From contig VAXZ01000117.1 in assembly GCA_005885035.1 (NCBI GenBank), positions 30,992 through 94,991 on the forward strand: 64,000 bases of DNA, read 5' to 3'. The DNA is from Actinomycetota bacterium. Its GTDB lineage: Bacteria; Actinomycetota; UBA4738; HRBIN12. Shown one piece after another: positions 1,294-31,361 of the stretch; position 1 is the first letter of the stretch, and the number at the start of each line of letters is the position of its first letter. The position numbers were made by a program, and so were the translations under genes. Under the pieces are notes generated by a model. That model saw only the letters and a program-made list of their open reading frames with translations. It made no database searches and was not told the DNA's origin.

Positions 1294-1367
1294 TCGCGGG
1301 GACAGGATTTGAACCTGTGACCTCTGGGTTATGAGCCCAGCGAGCTACCGGACTGCTCCACCCCGCA
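1294..1367 (-). tRNA. tRNA-Met (anticodon CAT), initiator-like
   Basis: The reverse complement is tGCGGGGTGGAGCAGTCCGGTAGCTCGCTGGGCTCATAACCCAGAGGTCACAGGTTCAAATCCTGTCCCCGCGA and folds as a cloverleaf. The anticodon loop is CTCATAA. The anticodon stem ends in three G:C pairs (GGG/CCC), as in initiator tRNAs. It is nearly colinear with E. coli tRNA-fMet as I recall it. Position 1:72 is a weak U.G pair. CCA is not encoded. Confidence 0.9.
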
Positions 1368-11833: not shown

Positions 11834-12328
11834 ATGTCAGACCCTCGGAGTATGAACGGACTCGTGTGCGACGTCGACGACATCACAAGCGCCAGCGGGT
11901 GGGACGTCATGGTCGAGGCCCGACGCGTTCAACACCGCTTCGAGGTCACGATGGATCAGTGCCTCGAAGCTTTCGGCATCTCCTACGCCCAATACCGTGC
12001 ACTCATCGCACTGCTCGACGGGAGCGACATGCACATCTCGGAGCTCGCACGACGGCTCCGGGTGACGCGGCAGGCGTCGTTGGCCATCGCGACGAAGCTC
12101 GCTCGATCCGATCTCGTCACCTTCGAGCGAGAGTCGCACGCCACGTATCTCGTCGTTACGCCGGTCGCCCGCGCGCGATTCGCCCGCCTCCGCGAGTTCG
12201 CCGACATGCCCGAGGAACTGGAGAAGAGCATGACGGATACCGAGCGCGGCCGTCTGGTCGCGCTCTTGCGGAAAGCAGACCGATCCCTCGCTCCTCCACG
12301 CCGCCCCGCATGGTGGCTCGAGGCCTGA
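11834..12328 (+). CDS. MarR family transcriptional regulator
   Basis: A winged-HTH pattern is present (ISYAQYRALIALLDGSDMHISELARRLRVTRQASLAIATKLARSDLVTFE). The start codon is uncertain; in-frame ATGs also occur at 11852 and 11909. Confidence 0.75.
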   Translation: MSDPRSMNGLVCDVDDITSASGWDVMVEARRVQHRFEVTMDQCLEAFGISYAQYRALIALLDGSDMHISELARRLRVTRQASLAIATKLARSDLVTFERESHATYLVVTPVARARFARLREFADMPEELEKSMTDTERGRLVALLRKADRSLAPPRRPAWWLEA

Positions 12329-12333
12329 GCCGC

Positions 12334-13353
12334 CTATCGGTTCATCGGCCGGCTGAGCGCGTCCGCGATCGCCGCGAGTTGCCCGCCTAGCGCAACGATC
12401 TCCTCCGGCAACAATGCCTGGGCACCGTCCACCATCGCCTGCTCAGGGTTCGCGTGGACGTCGACCATCACGCCGTCCGCCCCGGCGGCGAGCGCGGCCC
12501 GCGCCATGGCCGCCACGAGATGCCGCTTCCCCACCGCGTGCGACGGGTCGACGATCACCGGCAGGTGCGACTCGTGCTGCGCTACGGCCATCCCTCCCAG
12601 ATCGAGGGTATTGCGGGTCGACGGCTCGAAGGTCCGGATCCCGCGCTCGCACAGGATGATCTCTGAATTGCCTCGCTGCGCGACGTACTCGGCCGCCTGG
12701 AGCCATTCCTCGACGGTCATCGCGAGACCCCGTTTCAACATCACAGGTTTGTTCGCGAGCCCGACCTCCTTCAGCAGCTCGAAGTTCTGGGCGTTGCGCG
12801 TCCCGACCCGGATGCAGTCGGCGACGTCCGCGACATGGGCGACCTGGGACAGGTCTACGACCTCGATCACGACCGGCAGACCGAACTCGCGGCGTGCCTC
12901 CTGCAGGATCTCGATCCCTTGCTCCCCGAGTCCTTGGAACGAGTACGGGGACGTCCGCGGCTTATAGACGTCGCCGCGGACGATCGTTGCGCCGGCGTCC
13001 TTCGCCGCGCGGATCGCGCGCATCGTCTGCTCGGGGTTCTCAACCGCGCACGGGCCGGCGATCAGCGTGAAGGAGTCCCGGCCGACCGGGACCGTCCCGA
13101 CCTTGACTACGGTGGTCTCGGGATGCAGGTCCCGCGAGACCATCTTGTACGGCTTGCCGATCTGGATCACGTGGTCGACGCCATGCATCTGGCGCCAATC
13201 GATCGCCTTGAATCGCTCGGTGTCGCCGACGAGGCCGACGATCGTGTGCACGGTGCCGCGGGAGACGAACGCCTCGCCGCCGTTCGCGCGCACGCGTTCC
13301 GCGACGGCGTCGATCTCGGCGTCCGTCGCTTCTGGGGTCATCACCACGACCAT
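12334..13353 (-). CDS. 3-deoxy-7-phosphoheptulonate (DAHP) synthase, type I-beta with N-terminal ferredoxin-like regulatory domain
   Basis: 339 aa starting at ATG 13353, preceded by the Shine-Dalgarno sequence GAGGAGG. The KDO8P/DAHP-I-beta core contains LIAGPCAVE, YKPRTSPYSFQG, KRG and DPSH. The extra roughly 80-aa N-terminal domain matches the Thermotoga-type enzyme. The 617-aa ORF extension upstream is antisense to upp and is rejected. Confidence 0.9.
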   Translation of the reverse strand: MVVVMTPEATDAEIDAVAERVRANGGEAFVSRGTVHTIVGLVGDTERFKAIDWRQMHGVDHVIQIGKPYKMVSRDLHPETTVVKVGTVPVGRDSFTLIAGPCAVENPEQTMRAIRAAKDAGATIVRGDVYKPRTSPYSFQGLGEQGIEILQEARREFGLPVVIEVVDLSQVAHVADVADCIRVGTRNAQNFELLKEVGLANKPVMLKRGLAMTVEEWLQAAEYVAQRGNSEIILCERGIRTFEPSTRNTLDLGGMAVAQHESHLPVIVDPSHAVGKRHLVAAMARAALAAGADGVMVDVHANPEQAMVDGAQALLPEEIVALGGQLAAIADALSRPMNR

Positions 13354-13393
13354 GCGGTCGAACCTCCTCGTCGACCCGGTCGAACGGTCCGGG

Positions 13394-13423
13394 AAGTCGA
13401 AACCCCGGGCTCCGGCCCGGGGT
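13394..13423 (-). terminator. candidate attenuator hairpin in the DAHP synthase leader
   Basis: The minus-strand RNA is ACCCCGGGC-CGGA-GCCCGGGGU (13423..13402) followed by UUCGACUU. It has a 9-bp G/C stem and a 4-nt loop. It lies 27 nt after the leader-ORF stop and 48 nt before the aro start codon. Confidence 0.4.
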
Positions 13424-13450
13424 CGCTCGCTGCTCGGTGGCCGCTGGCGA

Positions 13451-13504
13451 CTACGCCGGGTCGCACCCGCCGTAGGAGAACCAGAAGCCGACGTACGACT
13501 GCAT
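13451..13504 (-). CDS. candidate leader peptide MQSYVGFWFSYGGCDPA (aromatic-rich)
   Basis: A 17-codon ORF, ATG at 13504 to TAG at 13451. All 16 sense codons after the ATG end in G or C. Five of the 17 residues are Tyr, Phe or Trp, clustered as Y-x-x-F-W-F-x-Y. It sits upstream of the first gene of aromatic amino acid biosynthesis. There is no obvious Shine-Dalgarno sequence, so the transcript may be leaderless. Confidence 0.5.
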   Translation of the reverse strand: MQSYVGFWFSYGGCDPA

Positions 13505-13521
13505 CTGTGCGCATGGTGACA

Positions 13522-13561
13522 GACGGCGGGCGCGGGTGGCAAGCCGCCCGCGCCCGCCGTC
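13522..13561. promoter_or_regulatory. perfect 15-bp GC-rich inverted repeat with 10-bp spacer in the upp / aro-leader divergent region
   Basis: gacggcgggcgcggg (13522..13536) and cccgcgcccgccgtc (13547..13561) are exact reverse complements. The spacer is tggcaagccg. A possible -10 element, TAGCAT (13564..13569), lies 6 nt upstream of the upp GTG. Confidence 0.6.
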
Positions 13562-13575
13562 GCTAGCATGCGGCG

Positions 13576-14199
13576 GTGACCCTCACGGTCCTCGACCACC
13601 CACTCGCCGCGGACCTGCTCGCGCGGCTCCGCGACGAACGAACCCCTCCTGACCTGTTCCGGACGCTCACGCGGCGACTCGGGTGGCTCCTCGTCCTGGA
13701 GGCGACGCGTGATCTTGCGACCGATCCGATCGACGTCCCCACGCCGCTCGAGACGACGTCCGGGCAGGTCATCACCGAGCGCCTCGTGGCGATCCCCGTC
13801 CTCCGGGCCGGCCTCGGGCTCCTCGATGCGGCCACCGACCTGTACCCCGACACCGTCGTCGGCTACCTCGGCATGGAGCGCGATGAGATCACGCTCCAGC
13901 CGCGCGACTACTACGCGAAGCTTCCGCCGATGGAGGGGCGCCGGGCGCTCGTGCTCGATCCGATGCTCGCGACCGGCGGAAGCGGCACGGCGGCGGTTAC
14001 CCATATCAAGGCGAACGCAGGCCCAAAGTCGATCTCGTTCGTCTGCGTGGTCGCCGCCCCCGAGGGCGTGAAGCGGTTGGCAGCGGACCATCCCGAAGTC
14101 CCCGTCTTCACGGCCGCGCTCGATCGGCAGCTCAACGATCAGGGCTTCATCCTGCCGGGCCTCGGGGACTTCGGCGACCGGCTGCACGGGACGGTCTAG
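13576..14199 (+). CDS. upp: uracil phosphoribosyltransferase
   Basis: 207 aa with a GTG start. Contains the PRPP-binding loop LVLDPMLATGGS and a C-terminal ILPGLGDFGDR typical of Upp. Confidence 0.9.
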   Translation: MTLTVLDHPLAADLLARLRDERTPPDLFRTLTRRLGWLLVLEATRDLATDPIDVPTPLETTSGQVITERLVAIPVLRAGLGLLDAATDLYPDTVVGYLGMERDEITLQPRDYYAKLPPMEGRRALVLDPMLATGGSGTAAVTHIKANAGPKSISFVCVVAAPEGVKRLAADHPEVPVFTAALDRQLNDQGFILPGLGDFGDRLHGTV

Positions 14200-15176
14200 G
14201 TCGTCGCTCCCTCGTACGCCTTGCCGGCGGCGGCCGGCGGTCGCACCTTGCCCACGAATCCGGCCAGAACCACGATGGTGACGACGTACGGCGTCATGCG
14301 AACGAATTGATCCGGGATCAGCCGGAAGACCGGCGCGTCACCGAGGCGGAGAGGGATCGCCTGGGCGAACCCAAACACGAACGATGCAACCATCAATCGG
14401 ACGGGGTTCCAGTTCGACAGGATCAGCGCGGCCAGCGCGATGAACCCCAGGCCCTGCGTCTGCCCTTCGCCCCAGCTGTACGCCACCTCGACCGCGAGGT
14501 ACGCGCCGGCCAGCCCCGCGAGCGCCCCCGACAGCAAGACTCCCTCGTAGCGGAGGGGAGCAACACGGACGCCGAGGGAGCGCGCCGCCTCAGGGTTCTC
14601 GCCGCAGGAGCGCAACCGAAGACCCCAACGGGTCCGGTACAGGGCGAAGGAAACGGGAAAGACGAGCAGCATCGCCACGACCACCATCGGCGACAGCTGT
14701 TGGAATGCACGTCCCAACCCCCATGGGATGCTCGAGAGCAGCGGGATGCTGACCGGGTTCATGTGTGGTTGCCCGGGATCCGACTGCGTCGCCTGCCCGA
14801 AGAAGATCGTCGACAAGAACCGAGCCAACCCCACCGCGACCAGGTTGATCACCACGCCCGACACGATGTGGTCCACCCGGAAAGTGACCGTCGCGAGGGC
14901 GTGGATCGTGGCGAACGTCGCTCCGGCGAGCATCCCGATCAGCAGCCCCATGATCGGCCCCCACGGCAGGCCCCAGCCGAGGCCGTCCGGGGGCGGCAGC
15001 GTGAAGTGGTGCGCGCCCCACGACCCCGTGACGGTGCCGACGATCATCATGCCCTCGAGGCCGATATTCACGATGCCCGAACGCTCGCTGAACAGGCCGC
15101 CGAGCCCGGTCAGGTAGATGATGGTGAAGTACGTGAACGCGATCCCGATCGCGGCGCCGATGTCACCGAGCGCCAT
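14196..15176 (-). CDS. ABC transporter permease (BMP/nucleoside-type, YufQ/NupC-like)
   Basis: 326 aa, multi-TM. GLFSERSGIVNIGLEGMM is the signature of simple-sugar/nucleoside ABC permeases. Last gene of a four-gene minus-strand operon. Confidence 0.85.
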   Translation of the reverse strand: MALGDIGAAIGIAFTYFTIIYLTGLGGLFSERSGIVNIGLEGMMIVGTVTGSWGAHHFTLPPPDGLGWGLPWGPIMGLLIGMLAGATFATIHALATVTFRVDHIVSGVVINLVAVGLARFLSTIFFGQATQSDPGQPHMNPVSIPLLSSIPWGLGRAFQQLSPMVVVAMLLVFPVSFALYRTRWGLRLRSCGENPEAARSLGVRVAPLRYEGVLLSGALAGLAGAYLAVEVAYSWGEGQTQGLGFIALAALILSNWNPVRLMVASFVFGFAQAIPLRLGDAPVFRLIPDQFVRMTPYVVTIVVLAGFVGKVRPPAAAGKAYEGATT

Positions 15177-30468: not shown

Positions 30469-31361
30469 TACTCCCCGACGGCCTTCTTCCGCGCCGCGGG
30501 CTTCTTCGCTGCGGGCTTCTTCGCGGAGGCCTTCTTCTTGGTCGCCGGCTTCTTCGCTGCCGGCTTGCGCGAGGGAGCGGGCTCGTCCGCCTGCTTCTTG
30601 GCGGCGGCGACCGACGCCTTGAGCGCCTCCATCAGATCGACGACCTTGGCGGTCGGCTCGGGGGCGACGACCTCGATCTCCTGGCCGTTGAGCTTGGCCT
30701 CGACGATCTGGAGCAGGGCCTGGCGGTACTCGTCGGCGTACTCCTCAGGGTTCCACTCCCCCGAGAGCGACTCGATCAGTTGCTTCGCCATCTCCAGCTC
30801 CTGACCACGGATCTTGGCGCTGACGTCGACGCCGCCGAAGTCGGCCTCGCGGATCTCATCGGGCCAGTACATGGTCTCCAGGACGAAGGCCTCATCCTTG
30901 AAGCGGAGCGCCGCGAGGTGCTCCTTGTCCCTGAAGCTGACCTTGGCGACCCCCACTCGACCGTCATCCGCCATGGCCTCGCGGAGCAACGCGTACGCCT
31001 TGGCGCCGGTCTCCTCGGGGACGAGGTAGTAGCTCTTCTTGAACATCACCGGATCGATCTCATCCAGGTCCACGAACCGGTGGATGTCGATAGCCCGGCT
31101 GGACTCGACCGGGATCGCGTTCAGGTCCTCGTCGGTGAGGACCACGTAGCGGTCCTTCTCCACCTCGTAGCCCTTGACGATGTGCTCGAAGGAGACCTCT
31201 TCGCCGTCCTTCTCGCACACGCGCTTGTAGCGGACGCGGCCACCGTCCTCGTCGTGGAGCTGGTTGAACCGCAGGGTCTTCTCTTCGGTCGCCGGGTAGA
31301 CGGCGACCGGGATCGTGACGAGGCCGAACGAGATGGCCCCTTTCCACATGGCTCGTGGCAT
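30468..31361 (-). CDS. ku: non-homologous end-joining protein Ku with lysine-rich C-terminal tail
   Basis: ATG at 31361 is preceded by GGGAGGG. The protein begins MPRAMWKGAISFGLVTIPVAVYPAT... and has a full Ku core. The tail PSRKPAAKKPATKKKASAKKPAAKKPAARKK is encoded by short GC-rich tandem repeats. Confidence 0.9.
   Translation of the reverse strand: MPRAMWKGAISFGLVTIPVAVYPATEEKTLRFNQLHDEDGGRVRYKRVCEKDGEEVSFEHIVKGYEVEKDRYVVLTDEDLNAIPVESSRAIDIHRFVDLDEIDPVMFKKSYYLVPEETGAKAYALLREAMADDGRVGVAKVSFRDKEHLAALRFKDEAFVLETMYWPDEIREADFGGVDVSAKIRGQELEMAKQLIESLSGEWNPEEYADEYRQALLQIVEAKLNGQEIEVVAPEPTAKVVDLMEALKASVAAAKKQADEPAPSRKPAAKKPATKKKASAKKPAAKKPAARKKAVGE

Follow-up and report, generated by a model that had tools for sequence, protein, structure and literature searches.

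The window analysed here is a 64,000-nucleotide (64-kb) stretch from an Actinomycetota bacterium (GTDB lineage UBA4738; HRBIN12; GenBank assembly GCA_005885035.1, contig VAXZ01000117.1, forward-strand positions 30,992 to 94,991). On its minus strand, a gene for 3-deoxy-D-arabino-heptulosonate 7-phosphate (DAHP) synthase is preceded by a short open reading frame (ORF) rich in aromatic codons and by a GC-rich hairpin with a U-rich tail, which we describe as a probable attenuator sensing the supply of aromatic amino acids. The coordinates of its parts and of the neighbouring genes are collected in Table 1.

A first-pass annotation had placed the leader ORF at 13504..13451 (-), with its ATG 151 nucleotides (nt) upstream of the DAHP synthase ATG at 13353 (-); both translation and coordinates were confirmed. 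The leader reads ATG CAG TCG TAC GTC GGC TTC TGG TTC TCC TAC GGC GGG TGC GAC CCG GCG TAG, and five of its residues are aromatic, arranged as Y4-x-x-F7-W8-F9-x-Y11 in agreement with the earlier description. Five aromatics within eight residues were unique to this leader among the 212 ATG ORFs of 10–30 codons on both strands of the window, whose aromatic background was 4.6%. All 16 sense codons after the leader ATG do have G or C at the third position, which had been taken as a coding signature, but this is weak evidence. Equally accurate was the account of a 9-base-pair (bp) G/C hairpin beginning 27 nt past the stop (core ACCCCGGGC-CGGA-GCCCGGGGU at 13423..13402, then UUCGACUU), followed by the Shine-Dalgarno sequence GAGGAGG and the ATG. 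Although every sequence detail of the annotated extent, 13394..13504, was right, the feature is larger, with the -35 element (13542) as its upstream limit and the DAHP synthase start (13353) as its downstream one.

The protein encoded downstream of the leader matches DAHP_synth_1 (PF00793, E 4e-75) and, at its N-terminus, the ferredoxin-like regulatory domain PF18152 (E 2e-18; Pfam), in line with the allosteric N-terminal domain proposed earlier. The DAHP synthase unit is monocistronic, as the next gene downstream, of the MarR family, is convergent. Upstream, upp is divergent, so that 13354..13575 forms a 222-nt divergent control and promoter region; this orientation also ruled out the upstream hairpin as the terminator of an upstream gene.

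Table 1. Elements of the DAHP synthase leader and flanking genes in the window. In the leader index, A of the AUG is 1, and window position equals 13505 minus the index.
Feature	Window position	Strand	Leader index	Basis or role
Leader ORF, 17 codons + TAG, peptide MQSYVGFWFSYGGCDPA	13451..13504	-		Translation, conservation
Aromatic sensor codons 4-11 (Y-V-G-F-W-F-S-Y)	13472..13495	-		Aromatic conservation across leaders
Region 1	13465..13489	-	nt 16-40 (codons 6-13)	Anti-antiterminator; pairs with region 2
Region 2, ACCCGGCGUAGUCGCCAGCGGCC	13439..13461	-	nt 44-66 (codon 15 to 12 nt past stop)	Pairs with region 1 or 3
Region 3, contains terminator 5' arm	13413..13433	-	nt 72-92	Pairs with region 2 (antiterminator) or 4 (terminator)
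Region 4, then U-rich tail		-	nt 95-104	Terminator 3' arm
Terminator hairpin 3:4, GACCCCGGGC-CGGA-GCCCGGGGUU	13401..13424	-		96.8% paired
U-rich tail, UUUCGACUU	13394..13402	-		U count conserved
CCCGG...CCGGG hairpin, regions 5:6	13375..13393	-		77.4% paired; candidate element, role uncertain
-35 element, TTGCCA	13537..13542	-		T, T, G, C invariant in 75 aligned sequences
-10 element, CACCAT	13513..13518	-		A2, A5, T6 invariant; 18 nt after -35, 8 nt before leader ATG
Shine-Dalgarno of DAHP synthase, GAGGAGG	13363..13369	-		Sequence
DAHP synthase gene, N-terminal ferredoxin-like domain, 339 aa	12334..13353	-		Pfam PF00793 + PF18152
upp, uracil phosphoribosyltransferase	13576..14199	+		PF14681; divergent upstream neighbour
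MarR-family gene	11834..12328	+		Convergent, 3' of DAHP synthase

Conservation of the leader peptide and its linkage to DAHP synthase

Searching a genome collection with the DAHP synthase protein gave 80 loci in metagenome-assembled genomes of uncultured Actinomycetota, with 67–97% identity. These loci were picked by DAHP synthase similarity alone, and 77 of them had sufficient upstream DNA. The leader ORF lay at the same place in 74 of the 77, at 135–204 nt from the gene start and with a length of 16–21 codons, and its aromatic codons were kept with it, bearing out the annotated leader in relatives. Across the genome loci the consensus was M-Q-x-(Y/F)-(F/V)-G-F-W-F-(F/T/A)-Y-(F/G)-G-x-(D/G)-P-(A/G)-stop. 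The ORF had 17 codons in 68 of 75 sequences (16, 18 or 21 in the exceptions), and in the 75-sequence alignment the position of its stop codon was fixed and indels within it were always multiples of three, whereas those outside it were of any length.

Over the 61 distinct 17-codon leaders, aromatic residues made up 31% of the peptide (F 18%, Y 8%, W 5%), with the enrichment concentrated at codons 7–11. Position 7 was F, Y or W in 45 of them; position 8 was W in 47 and R or G in 12; position 9 was F, Y or W in 57 (F in 54) and position 11 was Y or F in 54. F, W and Y were all present in 51 of the 61. Leaders also varied synonymously (TTC/TTT, GGC/GGT, TAC/TAT and CAG/CAA), and the frame is therefore read as codons.

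The genome loci without the ORF differ in what is left. L026 has a deletion from just past the -10 element to about codon 14, with promoter, region 2 and terminator kept (L026:2850-3000); L043 is reduced to promoter and terminator hairpin (L043:2850-3000); and in L037 the leader is wholly absent and upp abuts the DAHP synthase gene (L037:2900-3000).

Reciprocally, metagenomes were scanned with an RNA-only signature, CCCGGSGTAGTCRCC-N12-32-CCCCGGG-N4-12-CCGGGG, which covers the end of the ORF with region 2 and the terminator. At least 120 loci carried it. The downstream gene was examined in 80 of these, 78 with enough flank, and among the matches listed it was DAHP synthase, directly downstream, in all 78, with no other gene found there. 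Identity to the window's DAHP synthase was 52–99.5% over the N-terminal part within the 700-nt downstream flank, and the leader ORF was found in 116 of the 120 loci listed, as 97 distinct peptides with 30.7% aromatic residues. With the signature linked only to DAHP synthase, we therefore regard the element as a dedicated cis-regulator of the DAHP synthase gene.

Distant versions occur in the metagenome loci L124, L148, L140, L151, L126 and L136, whose DAHP synthases are 52–60% identical over the N-terminal part compared; distant metagenome leaders are richer in aromatics and have longer aromatic runs (MKRFFFFGWFYTGASPA, MQRFFFTWWYFAGRRPA, MGRRFSFTWWYFAGRSPA). The leader family thus reaches beyond the genome set, and in total it comprises at least about 190 loci, in uncultured Actinomycetota of soil, sediment and groundwater. 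One contig labelled 'Planctomycetaceae bacterium' (L014) carries a DAHP synthase 86% identical to that of the window, with the same leader (MQFTYGFWFFYFGPGPA), and is probably mis-binned. The DAHP synthase protein search identified no cultured carrier, its close relatives among the matches listed being metagenomic only, and no second copy of the motif was found elsewhere in the window or in all flanks, bar three unrelated hairpins.

Promoter and RNA helices of the leader

Promoter elements upstream of the leader were compared in 70 distinct upstream regions. The -35 element was TTGCCA in 46 of these, TTGTCA in 16, TTGCCG in 5 and TTGACA in 2; the -35/-10 spacer was 17–18 nt in 68 of 70, and the gap between the -10 element and the leader ATG was 7–11 nt (mode 9), with a Shine-Dalgarno-like 4-mer inside it in only 2. 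Across the alignment the -10 element reads CA(C/T)(C/G)AT, the window copy matching the consensus at only 3 of 6 positions. The same promoter pattern was present in 106 of 113 metagenome loci (among the matches listed). From this conservation we infer that transcription starts no more than ~3 nt from the leader AUG, and not downstream of 13451, a case that the first-pass annotation had allowed for. Such a start leaves no room for a Shine-Dalgarno sequence, and the leader would therefore most probably be translated leaderless.

In the window, the -35 TTGCCA also sits at the centre of a GC palindrome with perfect 15-bp arms (GACGGCGGGCGCGGGCGG-CTTG-CCACCCGCGCCCGCCGTC; 13522..13561, both strands). 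Only 9 of 72 sequences, from the window's nearest relatives and some others, had a significant palindrome (p<=0.05), and we rejected it as a component of the core feature; as it lies upstream of both inferred transcription starts of the divergent region, it probably acts at the level of DNA, for instance as an operator.

Regions 1 to 4 of the leader RNA were defined by constrained single-sequence folds of the window leader and then counted on the 75-sequence alignment; RNAalifold applied to the whole leader recovered only the terminator and fragments. The terminator is a GC stem of 9–10 bp (median dG -21 kcal/mol) at a fixed distance of 25–30 nt from the stop codon, and two of its pairs show compensatory changes, from A:U to G:C in 15 sequences and from C:G to U:A in 11. 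After the stem, 4–7 of 10 nt were U in all 75 sequences, with at least three U in the first four nt in 66. Regions 1 and 2 pair in an inner helix (CUACG-G-CGGGU / ACCCG-G-CGUAG; 89.9% of cells paired, 31 double-change cells) and an outer one (GGCU-CUGGU / GCCAG-GGCC; 87.1% and 19, respectively). The double-change counts of both 1:2 helices were reached by 0 of 500 shuffles, and the terminator and both 1:2 helices stood above all 500 shuffles and all slid controls.

No clean antiterminator had been seen by eye in the first-pass annotation. One has since been found in the pairing of region 2, made up of the last part of the ORF and the 12 nt beyond it, with region 3 (CCCGG.G..GUCGC / GCGAC.CCCGGG; 93.3% paired); this 2:3 helix was predicted in 71 of 75 nascent RNAs. 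Folding thus predicts mutually exclusive structures, of which 1:2 and 3:4 are backed by compensatory changes. For the 2:3 helix we used an alignment-free comparison over 113 distinct spacers, in which the 12-mer after the stop was duplexed with its own partner or with partners from other loci. Own duplexes averaged -8.98 kcal/mol vs -7.11 kcal/mol for cross duplexes and were better in 89 of 113 cases (Wilcoxon p = 1e-11, without phylogenetic correction), which supports the predicted variable lower stem of the antiterminator.

Parts of these helices are themselves codons. Pro16 was encoded by CCG in 60 of 61 distinct leaders and Gly13 by GGG in 59 of 61, the glycines at positions 6, 12 and 15 using GGC; the Pro16 and Gly13 codons supply the CGGG/CCCG core where regions 1 and 2 pair and, in the 2:3 helix, the CCCGG strand. 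Their invariance therefore points to a constraint at the RNA level, with codons doubling as regions 1 and 2. In the same way, an apparent covariation of residues, G12 occurring with A17 vs F12 with G17, is the RNA pair G34:C50 changing to U:G. Codons that double as RNA helices can thus make the residues of a leader peptide look conserved and covarying.

Past the terminator, region 5 repeats the 5' arm of the terminator and could offer region 4 an alternative partner once the antiterminator forms (4:5, 88.5%). The 4:5 and 5:6 pairings are possible, and no covariation was found for either helix in the alignment. Nearer the gene, at window 13354..13374 (-), close relatives have a 5–6-bp hairpin showing GAGGAG in its loop (CGAAC-GAGGAG-GUUCG), likewise without covariation support.

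An attenuation model and its alternatives

Ribosome position was modelled on 67 distinct 17-codon leaders, masking the RNA as far as 10 or 13 nt beyond the A-site codon and folding the nascent RNA to just before region 4; an antiterminator was counted if region 2 paired with 5 or more of the 7 nt in the 5' arm of the terminator. With the A site at codons 8–10, the antiterminator formed in 60–66 of the 67 sequences, and with the A site anywhere from codon 13 to the stop it formed in 0 of 67. The stall optimum for antitermination coincides with the most conserved aromatics, F7-W8-F9(-F10). Given the fixed 25–30 nt between stop and arm, a terminating ribosome would cover region 2 exactly, and in the model the spacing of ribosome, stop and arm is that of the trp attenuator.

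The locus has a same-strand leader ORF with aromatic codons, an intrinsic terminator, an exclusive antiterminator and a 1:2 helix. We consider it very likely, on comparative sequence evidence, that the element works by ribosome-mediated transcription attenuation in the manner of trpL/pheL, senses Phe, Trp and Tyr and acts on a single DAHP synthase gene; the Tyr/Phe/Trp attenuator proposed in the first-pass annotation thus gains support from the conserved ORF, the exclusive structures and the promoter. Both termination at the hairpin and a response to amino acid supply are what we infer from the sequence.

We propose that the conserved sigma-70-type promoter would start transcription no more than ~3 nt from the leader AUG and that translation of the leader would do without a Shine-Dalgarno sequence. 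As long as Phe-, Trp- and Tyr-tRNAs are well charged, the ribosome would reach the UAG and cover region 2, which extends from codon 15 to ~12 nt beyond the stop. Region 3, left free, would pair with region 4, and the resulting GC hairpin of about -21 kcal/mol with its U-rich tail would stop transcription before the DAHP synthase gene. If any of the aromatic aminoacyl-tRNAs were scarce, the ribosome would stall at codons 7–11 (F-W-F-x-Y), covering region 1 and leaving region 2 open to pair with region 3 (CCCGG.G/GUCGC with GCGAC/CCCGGG) while region 4 is not yet transcribed; this 2:3 pairing would block the terminator, and RNA polymerase would read into the gene. In the absence of translation, regions 1 and 2 would pair and the terminator would form. 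Control at two levels, by the attenuator and by allostery, is plausible because the enzyme carries the ferredoxin-like allosteric domain (PF18152).

Several observations weigh against attenuation of this kind. Without a ribosome, the minimum-free-energy fold of the nascent RNA already contains the antiterminator in 30 of 67 sequences, and the terminator wins every equilibrium fold of the full leader, so that the switch must be kinetic and co-transcriptional. The U tail is short and interrupted, with 4–7 U in 10 nt across the alignment and 4 U in 8 in the window copy. The core of the 2:3 helix is nearly invariant and for that reason uninformative for classical covariation, and the covarying lower stem could also be a separate spacer hairpin. 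Taken by itself, the window sequence has modest folding z-scores (-2.2 across the leader as a whole, -1.0 in the antiterminator segment), and the three relatives described above (L026, L037 and L043) have lost the ORF. The -10 element, CAnnAT, lacks the first T usual in actinobacterial TAnnnT promoters, and a generic promoter/terminator scan of the locus returned 0 sites; it missed both elements because both deviate from its consensus rules, and conservation was used instead.

An unlikely alternative, and the one that survives best, is that the leader senses aromatic tRNA charging but delivers its output through translation, mRNA stability or Rho-dependent termination, not intrinsic termination, along the lines of the mycobacterial polycysteine small ORFs (sORFs). 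Those sORFs are leaderless and read tRNA charging 5' of a biosynthetic gene (bioRxiv 10.1101/834739), as the present leader probably does; its weak U tail also fits, as do the extra CCCGG elements and the small hairpin presenting the Shine-Dalgarno sequence between terminator and gene. The mycobacterial sORFs, however, act translationally by sequestering the Shine-Dalgarno sequence and have no terminator (bioRxiv 10.1101/834739), whereas here the sensor codons have region 2 as their partner rather than the Shine-Dalgarno sequence, and terminator and antiterminator are conserved. The hairpin and its U-rich tail are conserved, with compensatory changes, and their distance from the stop is constant; the helices past the terminator are those without covariation support.

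We see very little likelihood of a TnaC-like mechanism, in which the nascent peptide itself would be the sensor and W8 with D15-P16-A/G17-stop would stall termination or release upon binding of a free aromatic in the exit tunnel. The conserved G6, W8, G13, P16 and A/G17 and the proline near the stop would suit such an arrest peptide. The codons argue otherwise: the C-terminal residues use the invariant codons that form the 1:2 and 2:3 helices, the G12/A17 vs F12/G17 pairing of residues is explained by an RNA pair, and the replacement of W8 by R or G in 12 of 61 leaders, together with the free interchange of F, Y and W, fits codon sensing and not a fixed arrest motif. The conserved D/G-P-A/G-stop is an RNA constraint for which no arrest motif is needed, and the TnaC-like reading of D-P-A-stop was rejected on this codon-level evidence.

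Just as improbable is a reading in which a dimeric repressor uses the repeated CCCCGGG/CCCGGGG palindromes as its DNA operators, the short ORF being incidental. Four to five CCCGG-type palindromes do lie within 90 bp, and the window has the further large palindrome around the -35 element. That palindrome is confined to the closest relatives (9/72), however, and in the leader the compensatory changes preserve pairing and not sequence, a U-rich tail follows only one hairpin, and the ORF keeps its frame, its start and stop and its aromatic content, every indel in it being a multiple of three. A chance ORF beside an ordinary hairpin in GC-rich intergenic DNA, for which the modest z-scores of the window alone and the many hairpins of GC-rich DNA could speak, has a negligible likelihood and is ruled out by conservation: the ORF is kept in 74 of 77 genome and 116 of 120 listed metagenome loci, the element recurs in at least about 190 independent loci, whose DAHP synthases can be as little as 52% identical over the compared 5' part of the gene, and the linkage of leader and DAHP synthase holds in both search directions.

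Relation to known leaders

According to three reports, the aroR leader of Corynebacterium glutamicum precedes aroF, carries Phe-Tyr-Phe and responds to limitation of Phe and not of Tyr (PMC4046766, PMC11802643, PMC7356990), and the precedent named in the first-pass annotation is thereby confirmed (PMC4046766, PMC11802643). As described there, aroR resembles the present leader in being a short, aromatic-rich ORF directly 5' of a DAHP synthase gene in an actinobacterium and in being read as ribosome-mediated attenuation, with repression relieved at low aromatic tRNA charging. Compared by description only, it differs in carrying F-Y-F, against G-F-W-F-x-Y here, where Trp occurs in 51 of 61 distinct leaders; further, the DAHP synthase here has a PF18152 domain and is monocistronic. 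C. glutamicum AroF belongs to a different type I subclass and is encoded by the first gene of an operon. The aroR/aroF attenuator is reportedly the subject of work by Neshat et al. in 2014. In Corynebacterium diphtheriae, aroR is not among the reported leader peptides (PMC5784534), which suggests narrow, independent origins of such leaders.

With trpL and pheL (of pheA) of Escherichia coli, the present leader shares the logic of 1:2, 2:3 and 3:4 helices, regulatory codons in region 1, a stop adjoining region 2 and the same ribosome-footprint geometry. The E. coli leaders differ in using a Shine-Dalgarno sequence, in sensing one amino acid each and in controlling terminal-branch genes, where the present leader stands before the common first step. 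T-box leaders, which Panina et al. are said to have described in 2003 upstream of aromatic biosynthesis genes in Firmicutes (listed among the references of PMC1262725), also let tRNA charging decide between terminator and antiterminator 5' of aromatic pathway genes; unlike the present leader, they bind uncharged tRNA directly and have no leader ORF.

Among high-GC Actinomycetota, Streptomyces lividans has eight leader peptides (trpL1, leuL, ilvL and others), all leaderless or with a leaderless start (PMC8079986). These short leaderless ORFs, like the present, probably leaderless one, are followed by hairpins that may or may not carry a U stretch, but none of the eight precedes a DAHP synthase gene or mixes F, W and Y codons (PMC8079986). 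PMC4046766 cites a study titled as evidence for formation of the C. glutamicum ilvB leader peptide without a ribosome-binding site. A leaderless start is usual for actinobacterial leader peptides.

Rfam models of leaders (Trp_leader, Phe_leader and others) and of T-boxes gave no match at E up to 10 in 12800..14300, and at the gathering score nothing except one tRNA (1294..1367, -) was found in the whole 64-kb window. Our literature searches found no description of this DAHP synthase leader family. It is a well-defined family of cis-regulatory RNA and leader peptide without an Rfam entry, a known mechanism in a previously uncatalogued, widespread family of uncultured Actinomycetota, and it offers a second, apparently independent case beside aroR, again as compared by description. 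Entry into the shikimate pathway would here be controlled on one isoenzyme, through a leader mixing the codons of three end products and through an allosteric ferredoxin-like domain. E. coli has three DAHP synthase isoenzymes with separate repressors.

More speculatively, and with low probability in our estimate, the leaders could be an independently evolved 'pan-aromatic' attenuator family, in which one leaderless leader integrates Phe, Trp and Tyr charging at the committed step, and either the CCCCGGG copies past the terminator (4:5, 5:6) serve as a second switch coupling read-through to DAHP synthase translation or the released attenuator RNA or peptide acts in trans. The Sinorhizobium rnTrpL RNA and peTrpL peptide act in trans in this manner.

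The signature can also be used for correct annotation of DAHP synthase starts and for building a covariance model. Some DAHP synthase relatives are annotated in databases with 340–347 aa, against 339 here. In the window, a stop-free frame of 617 codons (12334..14187, -) begins far upstream, crosses the leader region and enters DAHP synthase in frame; it is a GC-rich artefact that could mislead gene callers. Finally, the divergent upp likewise looks leaderless, with a -10 TAGCAT exactly 6 nt before its GTG start (window 13564..13578, +) and TAGGAT or TACGAT at the same place in relatives; the back-to-back promoters of upp and the leader take up, together with both start codons, no more than 71 nt.

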